Shown: piece by piece, positions 7,667 to 20,050 of the stretch
Numbering within the stretch: the stretch's first letter is position 1
How the letters are laid out: each line of letters opens with the position of its first letter
Source: a virus
Lineage: Duplodnaviria > Caudoviricetes
Length of the DNA stretch: 64,000 nt
IMG/VR virus record: IMGVR_UViG_3300027782_000030
Location: 136,571 to 200,570 of that record
Strand: one strand, 5' to 3'
Program-made: the position numbers and the translations under genes
Notes under the pieces: generated by a model
Seen by the model: the letters and a program-made list of their open reading frames with translations, nothing else
Databases searched by the model: none
Told to the model about the DNA's origin: nothing

Positions 7667-10600
7667 ATGAGAGATGTATTTTATTACGGTAAAAAACCCA
7701 ACGTTCACCCAAAAGAAAAATTTGCGACTTCAATAGAAGATGCCAGGAGTCAATGTACCACTGAACATTTTTGGATAATCAATGAATACTGTGATTATCG
7801 CAATCTAGATTGGGACTTTGATTTTGAATTCTTACCCGATGAAGATGTATGGGCAGAAGACCATAACAATGTATGGCCCAGCCAACATCAAAAAGACAGT
7901 GGCACTTGGCTATGTCCAAAGAAAAACAGTGATATAATTATCTATCGTGCTGATGTTGACCCTGTTATTCGTAAGAATATAAAGAATGACAATTGGGTAA
8001 TATTATATGAAATTGATGAAATTAACTTTGATTTTAGTTGGCATCCTGATCCAACTGATCCTTCCTATACTTATGTATGGGGTAACCAATGGCACTCTGG
8101 TAAGATTATGCCTACGGTTAAATATTCCGTACTTGGTTCGTTAGAAGTAAAATATATTGAAAATAATATTGCGATATTAGCACAATTGCCTGAAAACTTT
8201 GATATTTTTGAAGAAGTTGAGAATTTTGATTTTAGTTGGCATCCTAATCCAACTAGTCCTCCTTACATATATGTTTGGGGTAATCAATGGAATATCCCTC
8301 AGGACAAAATATCTATTCAATATAAAGTTGATGGTGCGACCGAACATAATTATATGGCCGAACGTGCGATTCGTAAACCATGTACAGGTAATTGGATAAT
8401 ACCTGATAATGTTGATACAATTGGGTTTGACTTTAGTTGGGAACCTAGCCCAGCGGATCAACCTTATATTTACCAATTTGGCACTCAGTGGCAAAAGACA
8501 GGTGGTCCACAATATTTAACACCAGGCGTACATAAAAATAGTGACATTAAGTATATTGATTTGCAAAAAGTAAAAATATTGCCTAATAAAGATAACTTTA
8601 TTATCTTAGACAATATTATTGTAGATGATTTTGATTATAGTTGGCATTCTGATGAAACAGAAGAACCATACATATACGTATTTGGTAATAATTTATATGC
8701 GGCTGAAATTATGCCAACTATCCAGTACGTACCTAAAAACGCAGTTAGATTAACATCAGGTAAACCAATTGAACAAATAAAATATGTCAATGACTTAGTT
8801 GCTAAATTAGGAGAGAATAGAAATAATTGGGTTATTCATCAGCCAATAGATGAAATTAAATTTGATTTTAGTTGGGTGCCTAATCCTAAAGATCCCCCTT
8901 ACATATATGTTTGGGGTAACAAATATATTTCAAACATATATAAACCAACGGTTGAATATATAGTTGAAGGTGCAACTGAAATAAAATACATGGATGACAG
9001 TGTTGCTGTATTACCCGAGCTTGATCGATGGTATATACCAAATAATATTGATGATACTGGTTTTGATTACACATGGAGACCTGATCCATTAGAACCTGTA
9101 TTAATTTGGCAATTTGGCACTCAGTGGCAGAAGACAGGTGGACCTAGATATACCATGCCTAGCGCTATTGAAATCAAATATATTGACAGTCAAAAAGTAA
9201 AAGCACTGCCTAACAAAAATTGGACTATACCTAAAAATATTGATGTATCTGAATTTGATTTTAGTTGGCACCCAGATGACACTTCACCTTCTTACATATA
9301 TAGATTTCCTACACAGTGGGCAATGAGTGGTGGTCCAATTTACACTGTAGTTGGAGCAACAGAAGTAAAGTATATAGATATCTTTAGGGCTAAAGCGCTA
9401 CCTAATACAGACAATTGGGAATTCGATTCTAACAATATTGATTCGTCTATCTTTGATTTTAGTTGGCACCCATATGCTGAAGATGAGCCTTTCATATATC
9501 AATTTGGTACTCAATGGCAAAAGACAGGTGGTCCTAGATATTTAACTCCAGGAGTTCATAAAAATAGTCCTGTAAAATATATTGATACACGAATTATAAA
9601 AGCAAAAAGATTGCCGAACAAAAATAATTTTGTTATTTTAGATGACAATGTTATATCTGATTTTGATTATAGTTGGCATCATGATGATACTGAAGAACTT
9701 TTTATATATGTATTTGGTAACAATTTATATTCTGCTGAAATTATGCCAACTATCCAGTACGTACCTAAAAACGCAGTTAGATTAACATCAGGTAAACCAA
9801 TTGAACAAATAAAATATGTTAATGACTTAGTTGCCAAGTTAGGAGAAAATAGAAATAATTGGGTAATATATCAACCAATAGATGAATCTAAATTTGATTT
9901 TAGCTGGGTCCCCAATCCCAAAGACCCAGCTTACATATACTGTTGGGGTAACAAATTTATTTCCAATGTATATAAACCAACCATTGAATATATAGTTGAA
10001 GGTGCAACTGAAATCAAATACATGGATGACAATGTTGTAGTAGTACCTGAAAGCGATCGGTGGTATATACCAAGTAATATTGATGATACTGGCTTTGACT
10101 ATACATGGAGACCTAATCCATTAGAACCTGATTTAATTTGGCAGTTTGGTACTCAATGGCAAAAAACCGGCGGCCCAAGATATATTATGCCCGGTGCTAT
10201 TGAAGTCAAATATATTGACAGTCAAAAAGTAAAAGCACTTTCTAATAAAAATTGGACTATACCTGAAAATATAGATGTGTCTGAATTTGATTTTAGTTGG
10301 CATCCAGATGATACAAGTCCACCGTATATTTATAGATTCCCAACTCAATGGGCAATAAGCGGCGGACCTAATTATATAGTTGAAGGTGCTACTGAAATAA
10401 AATATATTGATAAGCTTAAGGCTAAAGCACTTCCTTGTAAAGATTATTGGGATTTTAATTCTGCTATAGTTGATGAAAATAGTTTTGATTTTAGTTGGCA
10501 TCCATATGCAGAAGACGAGCCTTTTATATATCAATTTGGAACACAATGGCAGAAAACAGGTGGTCCTAGATATTTAACTCCAGGTGTTCATAAAAACAGT

Positions 10601-13600
10601 CCCATAAAATATATCGATACACGAATTATTAAATCAAAAAGATTGCCAAACAAAAATAATTTTATTATCATTGATAATAACATAATTGACAGTTTTGATT
10701 GGTCATGGCACCCTGATGAAACAGAAGAGCCATTTGTTTATATATTTGGTAATAATCAGTACTCGGCTGAGATAATGCCAACTATAAAATATGTTGTAGA
10801 AGGTGCTGCTGAAATAAAATATGTTAACGATATAATTGCTACTTTAGGTGAAAACAAAACCTATTGGGAAATGCCTGAAGGTGTGAATATTATCAACTTT
10901 GATTTTAGTTGGGTACCTAACCCTAAAGACCCTGCTTACATATATGAATTTGGTACTCAATGGAATGATAGAGGAGGACCAAAATATGTTCCTCCTAATA
11001 AAGGGCTTAGATTAGCATCAGGTAAACTTATCGGTCAATATAAGTATGTCAGTGATCAAATTGCTACAGTAGGGGAAAATAAAACAAATTGGATCATACC
11101 TAATAATATTGACATTACAGGTTTTGATTTTAGTTGGGTCCCACATCCCGATGATCCGCCATATGTATATGAATTTGGTACCCAATGGCAGCAGACAGGA
11201 GGGCCCAAGTATATAGTTGAGAATGCTACTGAAGTTAAATATGTAGATATATTTAAAGTTAGAATGTTACCCAATAGTGATAATTGGGAAGTACCTGATA
11301 ATATAGATAGCACTAAATTTGATTTTAGCTGGCATCCAAATTCAACTGAAGAACCCTACACATATAAATTTGGAACTCAGTGGCAAAAGACTGGAGGTCC
11401 TAGTTATTTAACACCTGGTATTCATAAAAACAGTCCGATAAAATATATTGATAATCAAGTACTTAGTAGTATTAGATTACCCAACAAAGACAATTTTACT
11501 ATATTAGATAATATTATTGTTGCTGATTTTGATTACAGTTGGCACCCTGACGAAACTGAAGAGCCGTATGTGTACGTATTTGGTAATAATTATTATCCAG
11601 CTGAGATAATGCCAACTATTCAATATGTACCCGAAAATGTAGTCAGAGCAGCATCAGGGATACCAATTGAGCCAATTAAATATGTTAATAATGTGGTTGC
11701 AACATTAGGACAAAATAAAACTAATTGGATAGTACATCAGCCGATAGATGAAAGTAAGTTTGATTTCAGTTGGGTACCTAATCCCAAAGATCCTCCTTAT
11801 ATCTATGTTTGGGGTAACAAGTATATTTCAAACATATATAAACCTACATTGGAATATGTTCCTTCTGAAATTCCTAGACTAGCAACAGGTAAACCAATTG
11901 GTCAAATTAAGTATATGGATGATGACGTTGAAGTTCTTCCCGAATGGGATAATTGGATTATACCTGAAGATATAGATAAAAATAGTTTTGATTTTACATG
12001 GAGACCTGATCCACGTGAGCCTGATTTTATATATCAATTTGGTACACAACATCAAAAAACAGGTGGTCCTCAGTATATTACCTTAGGTATCCCTAGACTA
12101 GCAACAGGAAAACCAATTGGCGGTCAAGTTAAATATGTTGATGGTATAAAGGCTAAAAAGCTACCTAATAAAACTAATTGGACTAATCCTAGCAAAGCGG
12201 ATGTTAGTACATTTGATTTCAGTTGGCACCCGGACGATACGTCACCTCCTTACATATATCAATTTGGTACATTATTAGATAGAGAAGATGGACCTAGGTA
12301 TATGACTCCAAAGACTAATGGAGTGATTGTTTATTTGGAAAAAGTTGAAAAAGAAATTGAGGAAGTTATAGAAGAATTGGTACGAGGTGATTTCCCTAAA
12401 TATTATATTTCTACTACCCTTGAAGATTTGGTAAAAGAACACCCAAATGAAATGTTTTGGGCATTAAATCCTAATTTAGATTATAGTGATTTTGATTTTG
12501 ATTGGAGACCTAATATTGACCGATCACAGTATGAATCAGAATATGTTCATGTGTTTGGATCTAGTGAAAGTGAAAAAACACAGACATATCTAGTTAATAG
12601 TATAATGTGGGAGAAAGGTTTTAGAGAATTAAATTGGGTCGTTGACAAAAAACTTGATGATGTAACATTATTTAAAATGTTCAAAAAATCCGATATGTTC
12701 TTTGTAGATAGAAGTAACCTAGAATCTCACGCAAGATTTGAACAACTTAAAGTTAAATTTCCTAATATACAAAAGACAAGATACCTAAATAGTTGGGTTG
12801 ATACTATTAATCGTTGTATAAATCGTGCAAGTAGTAATTTATGTTGGATATTAAACAGTGAATTAGATTATAGTAATTTTGATTTTGATTATTATCCTAA
12901 TCCTTGGCAAATGAAAATGGTCCATGTATTTGGAACACAATGGAGTCATTGGGGGTCAACATTCATGGTCAACCGAGAATCATTTGCTGAAGATACTAAA
13001 TGGATTAAAATTATAGAGCATTTAAGTAATCTTAACTTTGTAAAAGATAGAATTGCTATAGCTGATAACAATGTATATGACATATATGTTGTAGACCACG
13101 GTAATAAAGAAACAGCCACTGTGGTTGATCAATTGACTAATAAAGCGTGTGGTAAATCAGTTAATACTATTAAATATACCGAAAATTATTTACTTACATT
13201 TAGAAATCTATTAAGACAATTACCTGAAAAGAAAGAACATTATATTTGGTTATGTAGTAGCATATGTGACTATAGTAATTTTGACTTTAGTTATATATGC
13301 GATCCTTTTGCCCGTGAGCAATTGCATGTATTTCCTAGTGATACTCAAAAATTAGGTGATACCTTTTTAGTTAATATTAATAAGTTTCGTGAATTAATTA
13401 ATAATATGACTTTATTAAATGAATATAATAAAATCAATTATAATCAACATCAAAAAGTTAAAAGATTAGAACCGCCCACTATTATTACTAATTACGATTC
13501 TCATGTATTAAGTGTAATGGAAGACTTTGATTTCCCATATGCTGTGTTTTTATCTGAAGATAATAAAGATTTAAAAGTCAATGACGAAGAGCCGATTAGT

Positions 13601-14416
13601 TTATGGAGCAGTGACACTAAAAACATTGTTGTTACTAGCACAGGTGGAACAAGAATAGTAGTTCCCAAAGAGGCTAAAAATTATGTAGATACGCAATTGT
13701 ATGATTACCCCTACATTAAAAAGGCTAGTAGACTTGTGCCTAGTAATGTTTTAGACATTGTGTTTTTAAGTAATGGTGAGCCCAATGCAGATGAAAACTA
13801 TGAAAACTTGTTAAAACTAACTCGTGGGTTACCAAATAAAGTTACTAGAATAGAAGGCATAAATGGTAGAGTAGCCGCTTATCATAAAACAGCAGAGGCT
13901 AGTAATACTAACTGGTATTTTGTTGTTTGGGGTAAACTATTTGTTAATCCAAAGTTTGATTGGTCGTGGCAACCTGATAGATTACAAATACCTAAGAACT
14001 ATATATTTCATGCAAAAAATCCATTGAATGGATTAATATATGGCCATCAAGCAGTTGTTGCGTATAATAAAAAATTAGCATTATCTACTAAAGGTAATCA
14101 ATTAGACTTTACTATGGAAAGTCCACATCAGGTAGTACCTATATTATCAGGGACCGCTAATTATAATAGTGATGCATGGACTACATGGAGAACTGCATTT
14201 AGAGAGTGTATTAAACTTAGATATGATAATACTGAAGAAAGCAAAAATAGATTAAAAATTTGGTTAACTAAAGCCGATGGAAATTTTGCAGACTTTAGTA
14301 TTCAAGGCGCTAACGATGCTATAGAGTATTTTGATAGTGTGGATGGTGAGTATTCTAAACTCAAACTAAGCTACGAATGGGCTTGGCTGAGAGAAAAGTT
14401 CCAAAAATTTGACTAA
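7667..14416 (+). CDS. 2249-aa tandem-repeat protein with C-terminal glycosyltransferase-like domains
   Basis: 21 core units containing FD[FYW][ST]W..P..PYIY.FG.QW, followed by GT-A-like domains (DIVFLSNGEPNADENY..NGRVAAYH..WYFVVWGKL). ATAAGTA late-promoter-like site at 7652. Confidence 0.75.
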   Translation: MRDVFYYGKKPNVHPKEKFATSIEDARSQCTTEHFWIINEYCDYRNLDWDFDFEFLPDEDVWAEDHNNVWPSQHQKDSGTWLCPKKNSDIIIYRADVDPVIRKNIKNDNWVILYEIDEINFDFSWHPDPTDPSYTYVWGNQWHSGKIMPTVKYSVLGSLEVKYIENNIAILAQLPENFDIFEEVENFDFSWHPNPTSPPYIYVWGNQWNIPQDKISIQYKVDGATEHNYMAERAIRKPCTGNWIIPDNVDTIGFDFSWEPSPADQPYIYQFGTQWQKTGGPQYLTPGVHKNSDIKYIDLQKVKILPNKDNFIILDNIIVDDFDYSWHSDETEEPYIYVFGNNLYAAEIMPTIQYVPKNAVRLTSGKPIEQIKYVNDLVAKLGENRNNWVIHQPIDEIKFDFSWVPNPKDPPYIYVWGNKYISNIYKPTVEYIVEGATEIKYMDDSVAVLPELDRWYIPNNIDDTGFDYTWRPDPLEPVLIWQFGTQWQKTGGPRYTMPSAIEIKYIDSQKVKALPNKNWTIPKNIDVSEFDFSWHPDDTSPSYIYRFPTQWAMSGGPIYTVVGATEVKYIDIFRAKALPNTDNWEFDSNNIDSSIFDFSWHPYAEDEPFIYQFGTQWQKTGGPRYLTPGVHKNSPVKYIDTRIIKAKRLPNKNNFVILDDNVISDFDYSWHHDDTEELFIYVFGNNLYSAEIMPTIQYVPKNAVRLTSGKPIEQIKYVNDLVAKLGENRNNWVIYQPIDESKFDFSWVPNPKDPAYIYCWGNKFISNVYKPTIEYIVEGATEIKYMDDNVVVVPESDRWYIPSNIDDTGFDYTWRPNPLEPDLIWQFGTQWQKTGGPRYIMPGAIEVKYIDSQKVKALSNKNWTIPENIDVSEFDFSWHPDDTSPPYIYRFPTQWAISGGPNYIVEGATEIKYIDKLKAKALPCKDYWDFNSAIVDENSFDFSWHPYAEDEPFIYQFGTQWQKTGGPRYLTPGVHKNSPIKYIDTRIIKSKRLPNKNNFIIIDNNIIDSFDWSWHPDETEEPFVYIFGNNQYSAEIMPTIKYVVEGAAEIKYVNDIIATLGENKTYWEMPEGVNIINFDFSWVPNPKDPAYIYEFGTQWNDRGGPKYVPPNKGLRLASGKLIGQYKYVSDQIATVGENKTNWIIPNNIDITGFDFSWVPHPDDPPYVYEFGTQWQQTGGPKYIVENATEVKYVDIFKVRMLPNSDNWEVPDNIDSTKFDFSWHPNSTEEPYTYKFGTQWQKTGGPSYLTPGIHKNSPIKYIDNQVLSSIRLPNKDNFTILDNIIVADFDYSWHPDETEEPYVYVFGNNYYPAEIMPTIQYVPENVVRAASGIPIEPIKYVNNVVATLGQNKTNWIVHQPIDESKFDFSWVPNPKDPPYIYVWGNKYISNIYKPTLEYVPSEIPRLATGKPIGQIKYMDDDVEVLPEWDNWIIPEDIDKNSFDFTWRPDPREPDFIYQFGTQHQKTGGPQYITLGIPRLATGKPIGGQVKYVDGIKAKKLPNKTNWTNPSKADVSTFDFSWHPDDTSPPYIYQFGTLLDREDGPRYMTPKTNGVIVYLEKVEKEIEEVIEELVRGDFPKYYISTTLEDLVKEHPNEMFWALNPNLDYSDFDFDWRPNIDRSQYESEYVHVFGSSESEKTQTYLVNSIMWEKGFRELNWVVDKKLDDVTLFKMFKKSDMFFVDRSNLESHARFEQLKVKFPNIQKTRYLNSWVDTINRCINRASSNLCWILNSELDYSNFDFDYYPNPWQMKMVHVFGTQWSHWGSTFMVNRESFAEDTKWIKIIEHLSNLNFVKDRIAIADNNVYDIYVVDHGNKETATVVDQLTNKACGKSVNTIKYTENYLLTFRNLLRQLPEKKEHYIWLCSSICDYSNFDFSYICDPFAREQLHVFPSDTQKLGDTFLVNINKFRELINNMTLLNEYNKINYNQHQKVKRLEPPTIITNYDSHVLSVMEDFDFPYAVFLSEDNKDLKVNDEEPISLWSSDTKNIVVTSTGGTRIVVPKEAKNYVDTQLYDYPYIKKASRLVPSNVLDIVFLSNGEPNADENYENLLKLTRGLPNKVTRIEGINGRVAAYHKTAEASNTNWYFVVWGKLFVNPKFDWSWQPDRLQIPKNYIFHAKNPLNGLIYGHQAVVAYNKKLALSTKGNQLDFTMESPHQVVPILSGTANYNSDAWTTWRTAFRECIKLRYDNTEESKNRLKIWLTKADGNFADFSIQGANDAIEYFDSVDGEYSKLKLSYEWAWLREKFQKFD

Positions 14417-15063: not shown

Positions 15064-15213
15064 ATGTTTAAATTTAAATTATGGGTTAGGATTAATCCCT
15101 ATCAAACTGCTCATACTGTAGTTTGGGCCAGCAACGCACTGGAGGCCAAACAATTAGGTGAGACTCAGTATGGTGTAGGCAATGTGCTTAACTATACGCA
15201 AATAGATGAATAA
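15064..15213 (+). CDS. 49-aa hypothetical protein (MFKFKLWVRINPYQTAHTVVWASNALEAKQLGETQYGVGNVLNYTQIDE)
   Basis: Read by hand; fills the gap exactly between 15057 and 15220. Confidence 0.6.
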   Translation: MFKFKLWVRINPYQTAHTVVWASNALEAKQLGETQYGVGNVLNYTQIDE

Positions 15214-15219
15214 CCTATA

Positions 15220-16371
15220 ATGAATAATTTTATAGTTTATAACCCATCATCTTTGGATGGGACAGTATACAATATATTTTTTAATATTTTTGGTAGATAT
15301 ACAGATATCGTAGAAGATGTTAAACTGTTTAGTGGTATTTCAGTCTTAACATTAAGAGAAGATTTATTGTTAACAAAAAATCCACTAATGTTTAATTATT
15401 ATGAAATTTACATGTACAGAAAATCTAAAGGGTTACCTACAAAAATTATCATTGATTGGTCATTAGAGGGTCAATGTCATAATTCAAGTTTATCAACTTT
15501 ATTCAAGGAAAACGAACTTAATATTGATAAAGATATATTATTTGTACATAATGATTCTTCTAATAGAATTTGGGTTCCGTTTAATATTGGACAACAGTTA
15601 ACTATTGATTACCATGCATTAGATGCATATAAAAGGTGTATTATTACCTCTAGCAATTTGACTGACAGAACCTTAGTAAAAGACAGAAAAAATGGATTAA
15701 ATTTATTAATAGGTAAATTAAAAACAAAACATTCTAGATTTTTGGCAGCATATTATTTTTATAAATATGATTTACTTGATAGTGCTGTATTAGGTTTGCA
15801 TGTACTACCAGAAGATATTGTCACAAGGATGAAACTACATCCTGCATATTATGATATGAACTTTTATAATAAAATTGTACCATTATTAGGACCAGCGGAT
15901 TCAGTTTCTAAACTACACGATACGAATGAAGGGTGTACAGCAGAAGATGGCGGGTGGCCATTTGATCCAAACATATTTAAAAATTCTAGTATAAGCTATG
16001 TTTGTGAAACCTATGATATTGACAAAGGAATTTTTCCATACTTAGTGACAGAAAAATTTTATAGGTCTATTATTAATAAACATCCGTTTGTAGTGCAAGC
16101 CGGTTCAGGTCAATTAAACACTGTTAAATCTTTGGGGTTTGAAACCTTTTCATCTATCATTGATGAAAGTTATAATGATTATGATGTTCTTGATTATTCA
16201 CATGTTGAAAAAACTGTATTAGCCGCAAAGGATTTTTTATCAAAACTATCTAATAATGCTGATAAAATACAAGAAATTGTAGACTATAATTATAATCGTT
16301 GGCTATCAAGAAGTAAGGATGAATATGATAAGACTACTGATTTTTTTATCAGATTTATAAATAATCAGTAA
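15220..16371 (+). CDS. GT10-like glycosyltransferase-family paralog
   Basis: YVCETY..LVTEKFYR..KHPFVV..LGFETFSSIIDESYND, the same motif as 2..562 and 4336..6057. Confidence 0.6.
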   Translation: MNNFIVYNPSSLDGTVYNIFFNIFGRYTDIVEDVKLFSGISVLTLREDLLLTKNPLMFNYYEIYMYRKSKGLPTKIIIDWSLEGQCHNSSLSTLFKENELNIDKDILFVHNDSSNRIWVPFNIGQQLTIDYHALDAYKRCIITSSNLTDRTLVKDRKNGLNLLIGKLKTKHSRFLAAYYFYKYDLLDSAVLGLHVLPEDIVTRMKLHPAYYDMNFYNKIVPLLGPADSVSKLHDTNEGCTAEDGGWPFDPNIFKNSSISYVCETYDIDKGIFPYLVTEKFYRSIINKHPFVVQAGSGQLNTVKSLGFETFSSIIDESYNDYDVLDYSHVEKTVLAAKDFLSKLSNNADKIQEIVDYNYNRWLSRSKDEYDKTTDFFIRFINNQ

Positions 16372-16379
16372 ATAAAAGT

Positions 16380-16690
16380 ATTGTTGTAAAAGCCGTGAGG
16401 AAAGAAGCAAGTCAAAAGACGGGCAAGACGGGGGTGCGAATCCCCCCACCTCCACCAAAAGCATACTAGAGTGACGCTGGGGAAGAGTAATAGGCAGCGG
16501 TCGATAAATCTTCCAAGTATGCTTCTGATGGGGGTGACTAGAATCGATTGACGGATGAGTAGATGAGTGGACAACACGAGAGGCGATGGACGTAATCCAA
16601 GCAAAATCTATAAATGCCAACGATGAGGTATTTTCTTTAGCCGCATGAGGCTGAGACGGAGTAGGACAGACTCTGTAAAATAACCAACCT
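16380..16690 (+). ncRNA. ssrA: Circularly permuted (two-piece) tmRNA
   Basis: The 3' acceptor piece (T-arm GACGGGGGTGCGAATCCCCC, ending CACCTCCACCA at 16457) comes before a 72-nt intervening sequence and the 5' strand GGGGGTG (16530-16536). The two form a 7-bp acceptor stem with a G3:U wobble. Tag frame 16616-16648 reads ANDEVFSLAA*. Outer ends are approximate. Confidence 0.92.
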
Positions 16691-16691
16691 G

Positions 16692-16719
16692 TAATAGGCC
16701 CGCAAGGGCCTATTATTTT
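16692..16719 (+). terminator. Rho-independent terminator after the tmRNA
   Basis: TAATAGGCCC-GCAA-GGGCCTATTA followed by TTTT. Confidence 0.85.
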
Positions 16720-16746
16720 GTTGTTTTTTCGCAACAAACCCAAAAT

Positions 16747-16775
16747 TTGACATTAATTCGGCATAAGCGTATACT
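16747..16775 (+). promoter_or_regulatory. Early sigma70 promoter (cassette family)
   Basis: TTGACATTAATT, 17-nt spacer, TATACT; upstream AACCCAAAAT is also present at 36448. Confidence 0.85.
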
Positions 16776-16805
16776 ATATCTATAGTGAGAAACAAGGAGA
16801 GCGAA

Positions 16806-17177
16806 ATGAGCGAACTGACTTACAAGACTTGGGAAGAGTACACTCCGCTTGAGCAGGCCGCAATGACCTACTGGGACATGTACAAGGACGCTTACAATTT
16901 CCGCCCCCGTAGTGTAGACACGTCCACATGGACGCTGGCCGACTTCCAAAAGGAGTTCGAAACCCTTCAGTTTATCATCGACCGTGATGAGGCCCAGCGT
17001 ATCGAGGACGAGGCTGCGGCCGTGACTCGGTTCGAAGCCCGTATTGCTAGCATCATCCAACTTGGTGCTAGGGACCGTGCAATGGCACTGCGTTGGATTC
17101 ACGAGGCTGAGGACACCGGCGGCGACGATGAGTACCTCTGCTACACGGTTGGCATCCCTTATGGATACTTCAAATGA
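16806..17177 (+). CDS. Hypothetical early protein
   Basis: ORF behind the promoter; AAGGAG RBS supports ATG 16806. Confidence 0.7.
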   Translation: MSELTYKTWEEYTPLEQAAMTYWDMYKDAYNFRPRSVDTSTWTLADFQKEFETLQFIIDRDEAQRIEDEAAAVTRFEARIASIIQLGARDRAMALRWIHEAEDTGGDDEYLCYTVGIPYGYFK

Positions 17178-17287
17178 CATTCACTTTAACTACCCCAACT
17201 GGTAAGGTTATGCAGTTCTATTTGCAGGCTATGGCTGAAATGTATCAGACACTTTACCAAGGCACAATCACTAAGGTTTCTGCTTGA
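17174..17287 (+). CDS. 37-aa hypothetical protein (MTFTLTTPTGKVMQFYLQAMAEMYQTLYQGTITKVSA)
   Basis: Read by hand. ATGA overlap with the previous stop; its TGA lies inside the next -35 box. Confidence 0.55.
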   Translation: MTFTLTTPTGKVMQFYLQAMAEMYQTLYQGTITKVSA

Positions 17288-17312
17288 CATTAATTCAGGC
17301 AGTTGCTATAAT
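17284..17312 (+). promoter_or_regulatory. Early sigma70 promoter (cassette family)
   Basis: TTGACATTAATT-17-TATAAT. Confidence 0.85.
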
Positions 17313-17346
17313 CTTTTTATCGTAGTTTTTTCAACAGGAGTAAGAA

Positions 17347-18447
17347 ATGGCTCAAGTATCTGACAATCTCACCGTTACTAGTGTTCAGGCCCGTAAGGCA
17401 ATTCTCAAGGCGTTCAAGGTCAAACGTCCCGTGTTTCTTTGGGGTCCTCCCGGAATCGGTAAGAGTGAGGTTGTTTCCGAAATCACCGAGGAGCTCGGTG
17501 GTTTCATGATTGATTTGCGTATGGCGCAAATGGAACCCACTGACATTCGTGGTATTCCCTTTTTCAACAAAGACAATGGCAAGATGGACTGGGCGCCCCC
17601 GGTTGATCTTCCTGACGAGGAACTTGCTAGCCAGTATCCTATCGTCTGTTTGTTCTTGGACGAGATGAACTCGGCTGCCCCTGCTGTACAGGCTGCAGGA
17701 TATCAGTTGATTCTCAATCGCCGTGTTGGTAAGTACAAACTTCCTGATAACGTGGTGATTGTCGCGGCAGGTAACCGTGATAGCGACAAGGGTGTTACTT
17801 ATCGTATGCCGATGCCCCTTGCTAATCGGTTCTTGCATATTGAAATGCGCCCCGACTTCACTTCGTGGCAGAACTGGGCAGTTAACAAAGGTATCCACAA
17901 GGATGTGGTTGGTTATCTGTCATTCGCTAAACAGGATCTCTATGACTTTGATTCAAAGTCCTCTAGCCGCGCATTTGCTACTCCCCGTACTTGGTGCTTT
18001 GTCAGCGATTTGTTGAATGATGAAGAGGATACTGATTCCGATACCCTGTTCAACTTGGTTGCAGGTTCTGTTGGTGAAGGTCTTGCTGTTAAGTTTATGG
18101 CACACCGTAAGGTTGCGGGTCAGATGCCCGAGCCTAGCGACATTCTCGCAGGTAAGGTCAAGGAACTCCGTGTCAAGGAAGTGTCGGCAATGTACTCCCT
18201 CACGATTAGCCTGTGCTATGAATTGAAGGATGCGCTTGACAACAAGCGTGTATCTAACAAACAGTTCCATGAAATGGCTGATAATTTCTTCAGTTACATC
18301 ATGGCTAACTTTGAAACTGAGTTGGTCGTAATGGGTGCAAAGGTCGCTCTGAAAACTTATCGTCTTCCGATCGAACCCAGTCAGTTGAAGCATTTTGATG
18401 ACTTCCACAAGAAATACGGCAAGTACATTGTAGAAGCAGGTAACTGA
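17347..18447 (+). CDS. MoxR/dynein-related AAA+ ATPase
   Basis: Walker A WGPPGIGKS, Walker B LFLDEMN, VAAGN and LANRF motifs. Confidence 0.9.
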   Translation: MAQVSDNLTVTSVQARKAILKAFKVKRPVFLWGPPGIGKSEVVSEITEELGGFMIDLRMAQMEPTDIRGIPFFNKDNGKMDWAPPVDLPDEELASQYPIVCLFLDEMNSAAPAVQAAGYQLILNRRVGKYKLPDNVVIVAAGNRDSDKGVTYRMPMPLANRFLHIEMRPDFTSWQNWAVNKGIHKDVVGYLSFAKQDLYDFDSKSSSRAFATPRTWCFVSDLLNDEEDTDSDTLFNLVAGSVGEGLAVKFMAHRKVAGQMPEPSDILAGKVKELRVKEVSAMYSLTISLCYELKDALDNKRVSNKQFHEMADNFFSYIMANFETELVVMGAKVALKTYRLPIEPSQLKHFDDFHKKYGKYIVEAGN

Positions 18448-18450
18448 TCA

Positions 18451-18474
18451 AAGGGGAGGCAACTCCCCTTTTTT
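18451..18474 (+). terminator. Rho-independent terminator
   Basis: AAGGGGAG-GCAA-CTCCCCTT then a T-run. Confidence 0.85.
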
Positions 18475-18477
18475 CAT

Positions 18478-18506
18478 TTGCAATTAAATACGGTATATGT
18501 TACAAT
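18478..18506 (+). promoter_or_regulatory. Sigma70-type promoter
   Basis: TTGCAATTAAAT-17-TACAAT, immediately after the terminator. Confidence 0.65.
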
Positions 18507-18534
18507 ATAGCATATATACGATAAAGGAGTAGGT

Positions 18535-19818
18535 ATGAGTGATGTAGTCGCCCCAACTAAAAAACGCAAGCGCAGTAAAAAATTTGAGAACTTGGTCGGT
18601 CCTACCGACGCTAAAGTAGACTTCAATGCCCGTGAGCGGTTGGTAACTGCCCGCATTGGTCTGCTTCTCCGTCATTCATTCTTTGGTAACCTTGCGACCC
18701 GTATGCAACTGGTTAACGCCGATGAATGGTGTAGTACAGCCGCTACCGACGGCTTGAAATTCTATTACAATTCTCGGTTCATTATGATGCTAAAGCCCAA
18801 GGAAGTTGAATTCTTGGTTGGGCATGAAGTGCTCCACGTAGTCTACGATCATATCGGTCGTCGAGGCAATCGTGATCCCCAACTTTGGAACATTGCTGAT
18901 GACTACGCCGTTAATGCCGATCTAAAACGGCACAAGGTCGGTGAGTTTATTAAAACCGTTCCTTGCTTGTACGAAGCAAAATACGACGGGAAGTCTGCCG
19001 AAGAAATCTATGATGACCTTTACGAAAAGGCAGAAAAGATTAACGTCGAGGATTTGATCGACCAAATGATTGATGATCATATGGAAGGTGAAAGTCAAGG
19101 TGAGAGTGACGGCGAAGAAATTGACGGTAGCGGTAAGGGCAAAGGTCGTCCTAAGATGAGCCCTGAGGAGCGTGAGCGTGTACGTCAGGAAGTCAAGCAG
19201 GCTATCATCAATGCCGCACAAGGTGCAGAAGCAGGTTCTGTTCCTAAAGGTGTTGAGCGGTTGATCAAACATCATACTAATCCAGTAATGCCTTGGCGTG
19301 AGTTGATTCAAACTAACTTGACCAGTTCTATTCGTACCGACTTTAGTTTTATTCGCCCTAATCGTCGCGGTTGGCACATGGATGCTATCATGCCTGGTAT
19401 GACCCCGGGTGAAGAAATTGATGTTGTGGTTAGCCTTGATATGTCAGGGTCTATCACTGATAAACAAGGACAGGCATTCTTAGGTGAGATTGCAGGTATG
19501 ATGGATGCCTTTGACGGATACAAAGTACATGTATTCTGTTTTGATACAGAAATCTACAATCCACAAGACTTTACCAGCGAGAACCTAGATTCAATTGATT
19601 CATATGAACCAGTTGGTGGCGGTGGTACTGACTTTGATGCTATCTTCGGCTATCTTAAAGAAAACGCAATCGAACCAAAACGTTTGATTGTATTTACAGA
19701 TGGTTATCCTTGCGGTAGTTGGGGAGATCCTGACTATTGCGATACGACTTGGATCATTCATGGTGATAAGGATCCGAACCCCCCGTTTGGGACTTTCGCT
19801 ATCTATGACGAGAAGTGA
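18535..19818 (+). CDS. Metallopeptidase-like (DUF2201-type) plus VWA domain protein, MoxR partner
   Basis: TAATDG and HEVLH (HExxH); MIDAS motif LDMSGS, GGGGTDF, VFTDG. Confidence 0.9.
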   Translation: MSDVVAPTKKRKRSKKFENLVGPTDAKVDFNARERLVTARIGLLLRHSFFGNLATRMQLVNADEWCSTAATDGLKFYYNSRFIMMLKPKEVEFLVGHEVLHVVYDHIGRRGNRDPQLWNIADDYAVNADLKRHKVGEFIKTVPCLYEAKYDGKSAEEIYDDLYEKAEKINVEDLIDQMIDDHMEGESQGESDGEEIDGSGKGKGRPKMSPEERERVRQEVKQAIINAAQGAEAGSVPKGVERLIKHHTNPVMPWRELIQTNLTSSIRTDFSFIRPNRRGWHMDAIMPGMTPGEEIDVVVSLDMSGSITDKQGQAFLGEIAGMMDAFDGYKVHVFCFDTEIYNPQDFTSENLDSIDSYEPVGGGGTDFDAIFGYLKENAIEPKRLIVFTDGYPCGSWGDPDYCDTTWIIHGDKDPNPPFGTFAIYDEK

Positions 19819-20050
19819 CCTGATATATGAATCCCCCGATAAGGGGGAAACTATATATGCTAGGAAAGCAGGATCCACTGAAAGAGTATTACTATCGATG
19901 AGTGAAAAGGCTTGGTCCCGTATCAATGAACAGGAACAAGCCGAAGTTTGGAAAGATATTAGAGCATTGGCAAAGACTAATCCATCATTGAATGATGTTT
20001 TGGATAGATTGTTAGTAGTATATAACCTTATCAAAAAAGAAAACTTATGA
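19805..20050 (+). CDS. Hypothetical protein
   Basis: Plausible portion of the 19688 ORF starting at MTRSDLIYESPDKGETIYARK. Confidence 0.6.
   Translation: MTRSDLIYESPDKGETIYARKAGSTERVLLSMSEKAWSRINEQEQAEVWKDIRALAKTNPSLNDVLDRLLVVYNLIKKENL

Follow-up and report, generated by a model that had tools for sequence, protein, structure and literature searches.

The plus strand of the window (by which we mean the whole 64,000-nt stretch of viral DNA that was analyzed) carries at positions 16380-16720 a real phage-borne gene for a circularly permuted tmRNA. We consider it likely that this gene is a functional permuted ssrA of the betaproteobacterial type, belonging to a jumbo phage of the T4 superfamily, and its features point to a role in ribosome rescue and protein tagging. 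The permuted layout, the acceptor stem with its G3:U pair, the U and A at positions -5 and -4 relative to the resume codon and the tag ANDEVFSLAA, all proposed in the original prediction from the letters alone, were found by direct reading exactly where they had been placed (Table 1), as were the motif TATAAATA ahead of the gene and, with the help of a terminator scan, the GCAA-loop terminator behind it.

Covariance models, which had been named as a check, bear out this reading. The RNA matches RF04321 (tmRNA_permuted) over the full length of the model with 111.5 bits (E 6e-21; Rfam cut-off 47 bits) and, again over the full length, RF01850 (beta_tmRNA), the best model of its clan, with 98.2 bits (E 1e-28; cut-off 84 bits). 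ARAGORN, the other program suggested, gave a divided answer: with the -ps80 option it called a permuted tmRNA whose domains and tag agree with this reading, but at default settings the tmRNA was not called. Genes of this sort are overlooked by default ARAGORN and detected by the newer RF04321 model. Moreover, a folding energy of -113 kcal/mol was computed for the precursor (z = -5.2 relative to shuffled sequences), and when the predicted pieces were cofolded as two strands, both the acceptor stem and a helix formed by TGTTGT and ACAACA were recovered. That this second helix joins the two pieces had also been proposed, and the proposal is well supported by the exact complementarity of the strands, by the cofold and by covariation of this closing helix among relatives. 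The same lines of evidence leave practically no room for the idea that the locus is protein-coding on the minus strand and resembles an RNA by accident. Two minus-strand ORFs are indeed open in the ORF list (16306-16743, 145 aa; 16365-16604, 79 aa), but both start with TTG, have no PHROG match and run opposite to every neighboring gene, and the sequence is fully accounted for by the RNA models together with covariation and the conserved tag frame.

Table 1. Features of the permuted tmRNA gene in the window and permuted tmRNAs of four jumbo-phage contigs
Feature	Coordinates	Strand	Evidence or remark
T4-late-type promoter motif TATAAATA	16356..16363	+	Overlaps 3' end of the 383-aa ORF; contains ATAAATA
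Second late-type motif, GTAAATA	16368..16374	+	6 nt before first helix strand
Predicted acceptor piece	16380..16457	+	Rfam alignments, ARAGORN 3' tRNA domain, cofold, covariation
Closing-helix 5' strand, TGTTGT	16382-87	+	Exact complement of ACAACA 16571-76
Lineage-specific mini-hairpin, CC-GUGA-GG	16393-16400	+	Within acceptor piece
P2a 5' strand	16420-26	+	Acceptor piece
T-arm: GGGGG, loop TGCGAAT (UGCGAAU), CCCCC	GGGGG 16430-34; CCCCC 16442-46	+	Direct reading
Acceptor 3' strand, CACCTCC	16447-53	+	Direct reading
Discriminator A; encoded CCA	16454; 16455-57	+	Direct reading
Intervening segment, 72 nt, predicted to be excised	16458..16529	+	Between CCA end and GGGGGTG
Spacer stem, 9 bp, extending the acceptor stem	16459-67 with 16516-24	+	MFE fold, covariation
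Predicted coding piece	16530..16720	+	Rfam, ARAGORN, alignments with relatives
Acceptor 5' strand, GGGGGTG	16530-36	+	Direct reading
P2a 3' strand	16548-53	+	Coding piece
Closing-helix 3' strand, ACAACA	16571-76	+	Coding piece
PK1 region	16577-16603	+	Rfam, alignment
Tag ORF GCC...GCA, ANDEVFSLAA	16616-45	+	Followed by stop TGA (16646-48) and 3' domain
Intrinsic terminator: 11-bp stem (16691-16716), GCAA loop, T-run	16691..16730	+	Terminator scan
Permuted tmRNA, jumbo-phage contig	L195:2373-2738		
Permuted tmRNA, jumbo-phage contig	L200:354-742		
Permuted tmRNA, jumbo-phage contig	L214:739-999		
Permuted tmRNA, jumbo-phage contig	L226:284-566		

The order of the parts is that of a permuted gene, with the CCA-ending half upstream of the 5' acceptor strand and a spacer in between, as seen both by direct reading and in the ARAGORN output. 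The predicted 5' end of the acceptor piece (16380) was placed on the basis of promoter geometry. The two acceptor strands form a 7-bp stem in which G16532 and U16451 make up the G3:U70 pair (direct reading, Rfam alignment and cofold), and the resume codon GCC stands behind TAAAT, which supplies the U at -5 and the A at -4. No ORF was found in the 72-nt spacer. Stem 1 of PK1 consists here of ACG/CGU only (3 bp), plus A:A and G:G mismatches, and both this stem and P2a are weaker in the window than in most relatives, as judged from Rfam and the alignment. For PK1 stem 2, one compensatory double change (GC to AU) could be seen by eye in the alignment of relatives. An Rfam search revealed no riboswitch downstream of the tmRNA.

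The window belongs to a single 200,570-bp IMG/VR contig with 35.9% G+C that is ~58% complete according to CheckV. This record has a Gp23-type capsid gene and 21 tRNA genes. Its large terminase shares no more than 50% identity with the terminases of PA5oct-like, Phosso, Atu_ph07 and Rak2-like jumbo phages, and near-identical DNA is present in freshwater metagenomes from many studies. It follows that the carrier is an uncultured jumbo phage from freshwater, within the T4 superfamily. Since its tmRNA is of the beta subtype, its G+C content is 36% and its origin is freshwater, our guess is a Methylophilaceae-like betaproteobacterial host.

Upstream of the tmRNA lies a giant ORF of 2249 aa (7667-14416, +), which has no Pfam match and aligns with its homologue in a second viral contig, L098, at several offsets (27-39%), suggesting internal repeats. 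A 383-aa ORF (15220-16371, +) without Pfam or PHROG match separates a small ORF (15064-15213) from the tmRNA, and tblastn gave only weak matches for it (29%), in three other jumbo contigs. The segment from 16000 to 20000 has a G+C of 0.44, against about 0.35 in the rest of the window. Besides the tmRNA, it contains genes for a MoxR-type AAA+ ATPase and for a DUF2201 metallopeptidase/VWA protein, as well as a 123-aa gene (phrog_21968). The MoxR-type ATPase is found at 73-97% identity across hundreds of viral contigs (588 relatives), some of them larger than 300 kb. L098 and a further contig, L049, are syntenic with the window (58% aa identity for the giant ORF, 97% for MoxR and 94% for DUF2201) and have a tmRNA in the same slot, with 85% nt identity and the tag ANDDYFGEVRLAA; the terminator stem is kept in L098, with a TTCG loop. 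The 383-aa ORF is absent from both contigs, in which the tmRNA directly follows the small ORF.

Relatives of the gene are numerous among viral contigs. The 28-nt sequence of T-arm plus acceptor has an exact match in 106 IMG/VR viral contigs, 88 of which display the permuted layout together with an intact tag frame, giving at least 88 further viral contigs with such a gene, for the most part from Melnitz-like freshwater myophages, and all 16 contigs that were tested score as both RF01850 and RF04321. Their tags, 20 different ones if that of the window is included, all follow the pattern AN(D/E)...AA, and the frame is kept open. The records checked are true phages: a Gp23-type capsid gene (E about 1e-146) was found in four of the five whole records examined, one of the four being a complete genome of 150 kb that has terminal repeats. 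Most relatives have the gene order of phage Melnitz, that is, PhoH, PDDEXK nuclease, tmRNA, gp33, gp59 and gp32; among the loci with a beta-like tmRNA in this slot are L001, L004, L052 and many others from ~150-kb freshwater T4-like phages.

The helices of the RNA covary. In an alignment of 21 diverse members, in which five specified helices were evaluated with 500 shuffles and slid controls, 97.1% of the helix cells are paired and 16 pairs have changed on both sides. None of the 500 shuffles reaches the observed covariation, and the slid controls are ~50% paired. Five of the six pairs of the closing helix have changed on both sides (versions include TGCTG/CAGCA, TGTTG/CAACA, GATCG/CGATC, GACTG/CAGTC and AGTCG/CGACT, among others), as have four of six in P2a and seven of nine in the spacer stem, which is paired in 100% of cells. 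The closing-helix strand of the window is displaced in the alignment by an insertion of ~11 nt, which is a CC-GNRA-GG mini-hairpin common to the window and L049. The G3:U70 pair is kept in 20 of the 21 relatives. At one locus (L016:6254-6526) the 5' acceptor strand reads GGAGGTG, which produces A3:U70 instead of the alanine identity pair G3:U70. Spacers vary as well: five loci have spacers of 175 nt (L007, L032, L054, L077 and L082), each filled by a 50-codon ORF from ATG to stop, and the 141-nt spacer of L091 has a 42-codon ORF with several cysteines.

Whether the gene has been acquired without serving the phage can be judged from these relatives and from bacterial genomes. As a passenger without a role in infection, it would be either a recent capture of a host ssrA or a decaying remnant, and the G+C of 0.44 at 16-20 kb against ~0.35 could mean imported DNA, just as the weakness of PK1 and P2a in the window's copy would suit decay. 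However, a search of 185,579 bacterial species genomes gave no match for the T-arm combined with the permuted layout, as opposed to 106 viral contigs for the T-arm, the slot is conserved in L098 and L049, helices covary, tags are intact and the gene has a promoter motif and a terminator of its own. We thus regard the passenger explanation as highly improbable. In the same bacterial genome set, the T-arm alone was found only in Rhodobacter capsulatus, where it is part of an alpha-type tmRNA, and in Elusimicrobiaceae, where the tmRNA is one-piece, and no RF01850 match above cut-off was obtained in a sample of 151 genomes from the phylum of R. capsulatus. When the RNA of the window and a representative of the family were compared by blastn with 50,697 GenBank phage records, only stretches of 36-77 nt matched. 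It is even harder to credit that the gene is an attachment-site remnant, a part of a tmRNA gene picked up when a temperate phage integrated in ssrA was excised imprecisely. While integration at ssrA is common and fragments of this gene are frequent in prophages (PMC9004378, PMC11915505), the gene in the window is whole, with both halves, tag and terminator; moreover, its carrier is a T4-superfamily jumbo phage, and members of the family lie at conserved internal positions in T4-like genomes of the lytic type.

The original prediction held that the tmRNA is possibly made late in infection, and at the level of motifs this finds support. ATAAATA is, genome-wide, the most enriched 7-mer within 60 nt upstream of ORFs. 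It precedes 36 of 185 genes (18.5x), which puts it level with the Shine-Dalgarno word, and among the genes concerned are the terminase gene, a tail fiber gene and one for a virion protein; CTAAATA is enriched 8.9x in such positions genome-wide. By contrast, the 8-mer TATAAATA is not enriched within the window (6 observed versus 13.6 expected), and it is absent from L098 and L049, the two contigs without the 383-aa ORF. The second motif, GTAAATA, has a conserved counterpart in both contigs (CTAAATA), and other family members have NTAAATA, a sigma70-type TTGAC-17-TATAAT promoter or in some cases both, 4-7 nt before the helix strand, so that GTAAATA occupies the place of their promoter -10. On this pattern GTAAATA seems the likelier promoter for the RNA than TATAAATA. 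Because late-type motifs are enriched and GTAAATA holds a conserved position before the helix strand, late transcription with a start near 16380 is a reasonable inference. In seven members (L004, L008, L010, L023, L082, L089 and L096), a late-type (T/C)ATAAATA is placed inside the spacer of the TTGAC-17-TATAAT promoter, an arrangement that might allow both early and late transcription of the tmRNA in those members. Just past the terminator, the window has near-consensus sigma70-like promoters at 16747-75 and 17284-17312.

Near-identical variants of the gene, one of them with the tag ANDEVFAIAA, are present in assembled contigs from three lake metatranscriptome studies and cover positions 16369-16686. 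One contig from an RNA library crosses the spacer (corresponding to 16394-16572), another corresponds to 16543-16686, and some extend upstream past the promoter motif. Contigs that cross the spacer or extend upstream may represent precursor, read-through or DNA, and because of them the RNA-library contigs prove neither the transcription start nor processing. An adapter-flanked contig end at 16394, seen in one run, is uninterpretable.

If the gene works as we think likely, the late machinery of the phage would transcribe it from the (N)TAAATA motif, starting at about 16380 and stopping at the terminator near 16720. The 72-nt stem-closed spacer would then be excised by host RNase P and 3' trimming, yielding an acceptor piece of ~78 nt that ends in CCA and a coding piece of ~190 nt. 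Three helices, namely the acceptor stem, P2a and that of TGTTGT with ACAACA, would hold the two pieces together. The RNA would be charged by host AlaRS via G3:U70 and brought by host SmpB and EF-Tu to ribosomes stalled on broken mRNAs, where translation would restart at GCC 16616 and append ANDEVFSLAA, directing the product to host proteolysis of the ClpXP type. The likely benefit would be that ribosomes stay free during the late phase of infection, with its heavy damage to mRNA, and recycling of amino acids might be a further one. That the phage tmRNA replaces a host tmRNA cut by defense nucleases, as was also proposed, is speculation.

Neither SmpB (PF01668) nor ClpP genes were found within the 200-kb fragment, which is ~58% of the genome. 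Function of the tmRNA would hence depend on the host, and the phage RNA would have to compete with host tmRNA for host SmpB. Such competition could be taken as the purpose of the RNA itself, which would then be a competitor or decoy for host SmpB, AlaRS or a defense nuclease, or a blocker of trans-translation. There is a precedent in the tmRNA-like RNA of mycobacteriophage DS6A, which has no CDS (cited in PMC11915505), and the T-loop UGCGAAU differs from the bacterial beta consensus UUCGAUU. A pure decoy, however, would need neither a tag frame nor a resume context nor an ...AA end, all of which are intact across 20 tags, and the retention of G3:U70 noted above likewise speaks against a decoy. 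We therefore judge such a role to be improbable and favor rescue and tagging.

As for its type, the RNA of the window scores as beta yet belongs to a phage-borne branch. Among 86 members whose T-loops were retrieved via an anchor in the coding piece, the loop is UGCGAAU in 69, UGCAAAU in 15, UGCGAUU in 1 and UUCAAUU in 1, and G occupies the second position in 85 of these 86 phage relatives. We considered this G as a phage-specific trait and ruled it out, as alpha-type tmRNAs share it; for that reason it marks a branch rather than an oddity.

A second group of permuted tmRNAs was found in contigs selected for MoxR, 4 of 80 of which have one upstream of the MoxR gene (Table 1). In L195 it lies directly behind a giant ORF. 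The T-loops of L195, L200, L214 and L226 are GGCAGUG and GGCAGUU, which are alpha-like, and UUCGAUU and UUCGAAU, which are canonical; their acceptor stems differ too, and their tags are listed as ANDSQFLLAANA, ANDSQFALAA, ANDNYYTEELRLAA and AAANDEAFLMAA. P2a (CAA/UUG) and the 5' region (AUCGAUUG) of these four resemble those of the window. In this jumbo group, the slot upstream of MoxR is kept while the tRNA-like module varies. A wider reading, which we put forward only tentatively and consider rather unlikely, would be that freshwater T4-like and jumbo phages harbor a self-sustaining, phage-borne radiation of two-piece tmRNAs that includes the gene of the window, as opposed to repeated recent captures from hosts. 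It would draw on the conservation of the slots, which is PDDEXK-ssrA-gp33 among Melnitz-like phages and giant ORF-ssrA-MoxR for the jumbo group, on the swapping of sigma70 and late-type promoters, and on RNA bodies that are similar although their T-arms may be alpha-like, beta-like or intermediate. Were it true, tmRNA modules would be exchanged between phages, and phages could have carried permuted ssrA genes across bacterial classes.

The original prediction drew its novelty from the premise that well-known phage tmRNAs are one-piece, and this premise does not hold. Buchholz et al. (2022; PMC9004378) described a two-piece ssrA in Melnitz, a phage of OM43 (Methylophilales), and reported two-piece tmRNAs in 17 of 47 Melnitz-like contigs as well as 53 called by ARAGORN among 18,146 phage genomes, mostly aquatic; their Table S1 includes the jumbo phage XacN1, Caulobacter phage Ccr29, cyanophages and roseophages. 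The tmRNA database paper from which RF04321 stems lists 79 phage sequences and treats the betaproteobacterial two-piece tmRNA as one of three permuted lineages (PMC11915505). Consequently, the gene in the window extends a known kind, the phage two-piece tmRNA, by one new example. We found no literature on the freshwater family of beta-like phage tmRNAs.

Compared with the beta_tmRNA model RF01850, which it matches in full length, the window agrees in gene order (acceptor/T-arm half, spacer, tag-bearing 5' half), in the acceptor stem CACCUCC/GGGGGUG and in the resume context UAAAUGCC-AAC-GAU-GAG; a tag of the form ANDE...AA and a terminal hairpin are likewise common to both. It differs in being phage-borne, in its T-loop (UGCGAAU in place of the canonical UUCGAUU), in the GNRA mini-hairpin inserted after the first helix strand (~11 nt), in a weak PK1 stem 1 and a weak hairpin after the tag, and in having a T4-late-type motif instead of the sigma70 promoter TTGA...TATAAT that is captured by the 5' end of the model and was not found there.

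As in Melnitz and the pelagimyophages, the permuted ssrA of the window is carried by a T4-like phage from an aquatic habitat, and for Melnitz, too, no SmpB has been reported (PMC9004378). The RNA of the marine Melnitz, however, is of the alpha type (RF01849, 106.7 bits; T-loop GGCAGUA), in contrast to the beta type seen here. Melnitz has a glutamine riboswitch after the tmRNA, which the window lacks, and an early promoter according to its authors (PMC9004378), whereas the window has late-type motifs. The genomic context also differs, the tmRNA of the window being upstream of a MoxR/VWA pair, unlike in the slot of Melnitz that most relatives occupy. The 123-aa gene downstream was considered as a gp33 homologue and rejected, as it has no similarity to gp33, so that the ssrA-gp33 link of Melnitz fails here.

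Phage-borne permuted forms are likewise known from XacN1, phiCbK-like Caulobacter phages, cyanophages and roseophages, some of which have jumbo genomes. Caulobacter phage CcrRogue has 34 of 36 T-arm/acceptor bases in common with the window, and its tmRNA scores 88 bits with RF04321; this permuted gene (L118:574-892; JX100814.1 about 102546-102864) has no feature in the GenBank record. The cluster C mycobacteriophages and other soil phages resemble the window in encoding ssrA alongside large sets of tRNAs, but their tmRNAs have the standard gene order and are one-piece (PMC9004378), whereas that of the window is permuted.

The interest of the single gene is mild and lies in its beta subtype, its jumbo context, its late-type promoter and the large phage-borne branch to which it belongs. 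The wider pattern, in which hundreds of contigs from freshwater phages have related tmRNAs with conserved slots, fast-changing tags and exchangeable promoters and T-arms, is perhaps more useful, as material for asking why lytic phages invest in ribosome rescue and whether the type of tmRNA tracks the host, questions that the window was not the first to open. To the published set of two-piece phage tmRNAs, it adds a beta-type case from a jumbo phage with a late-type promoter.
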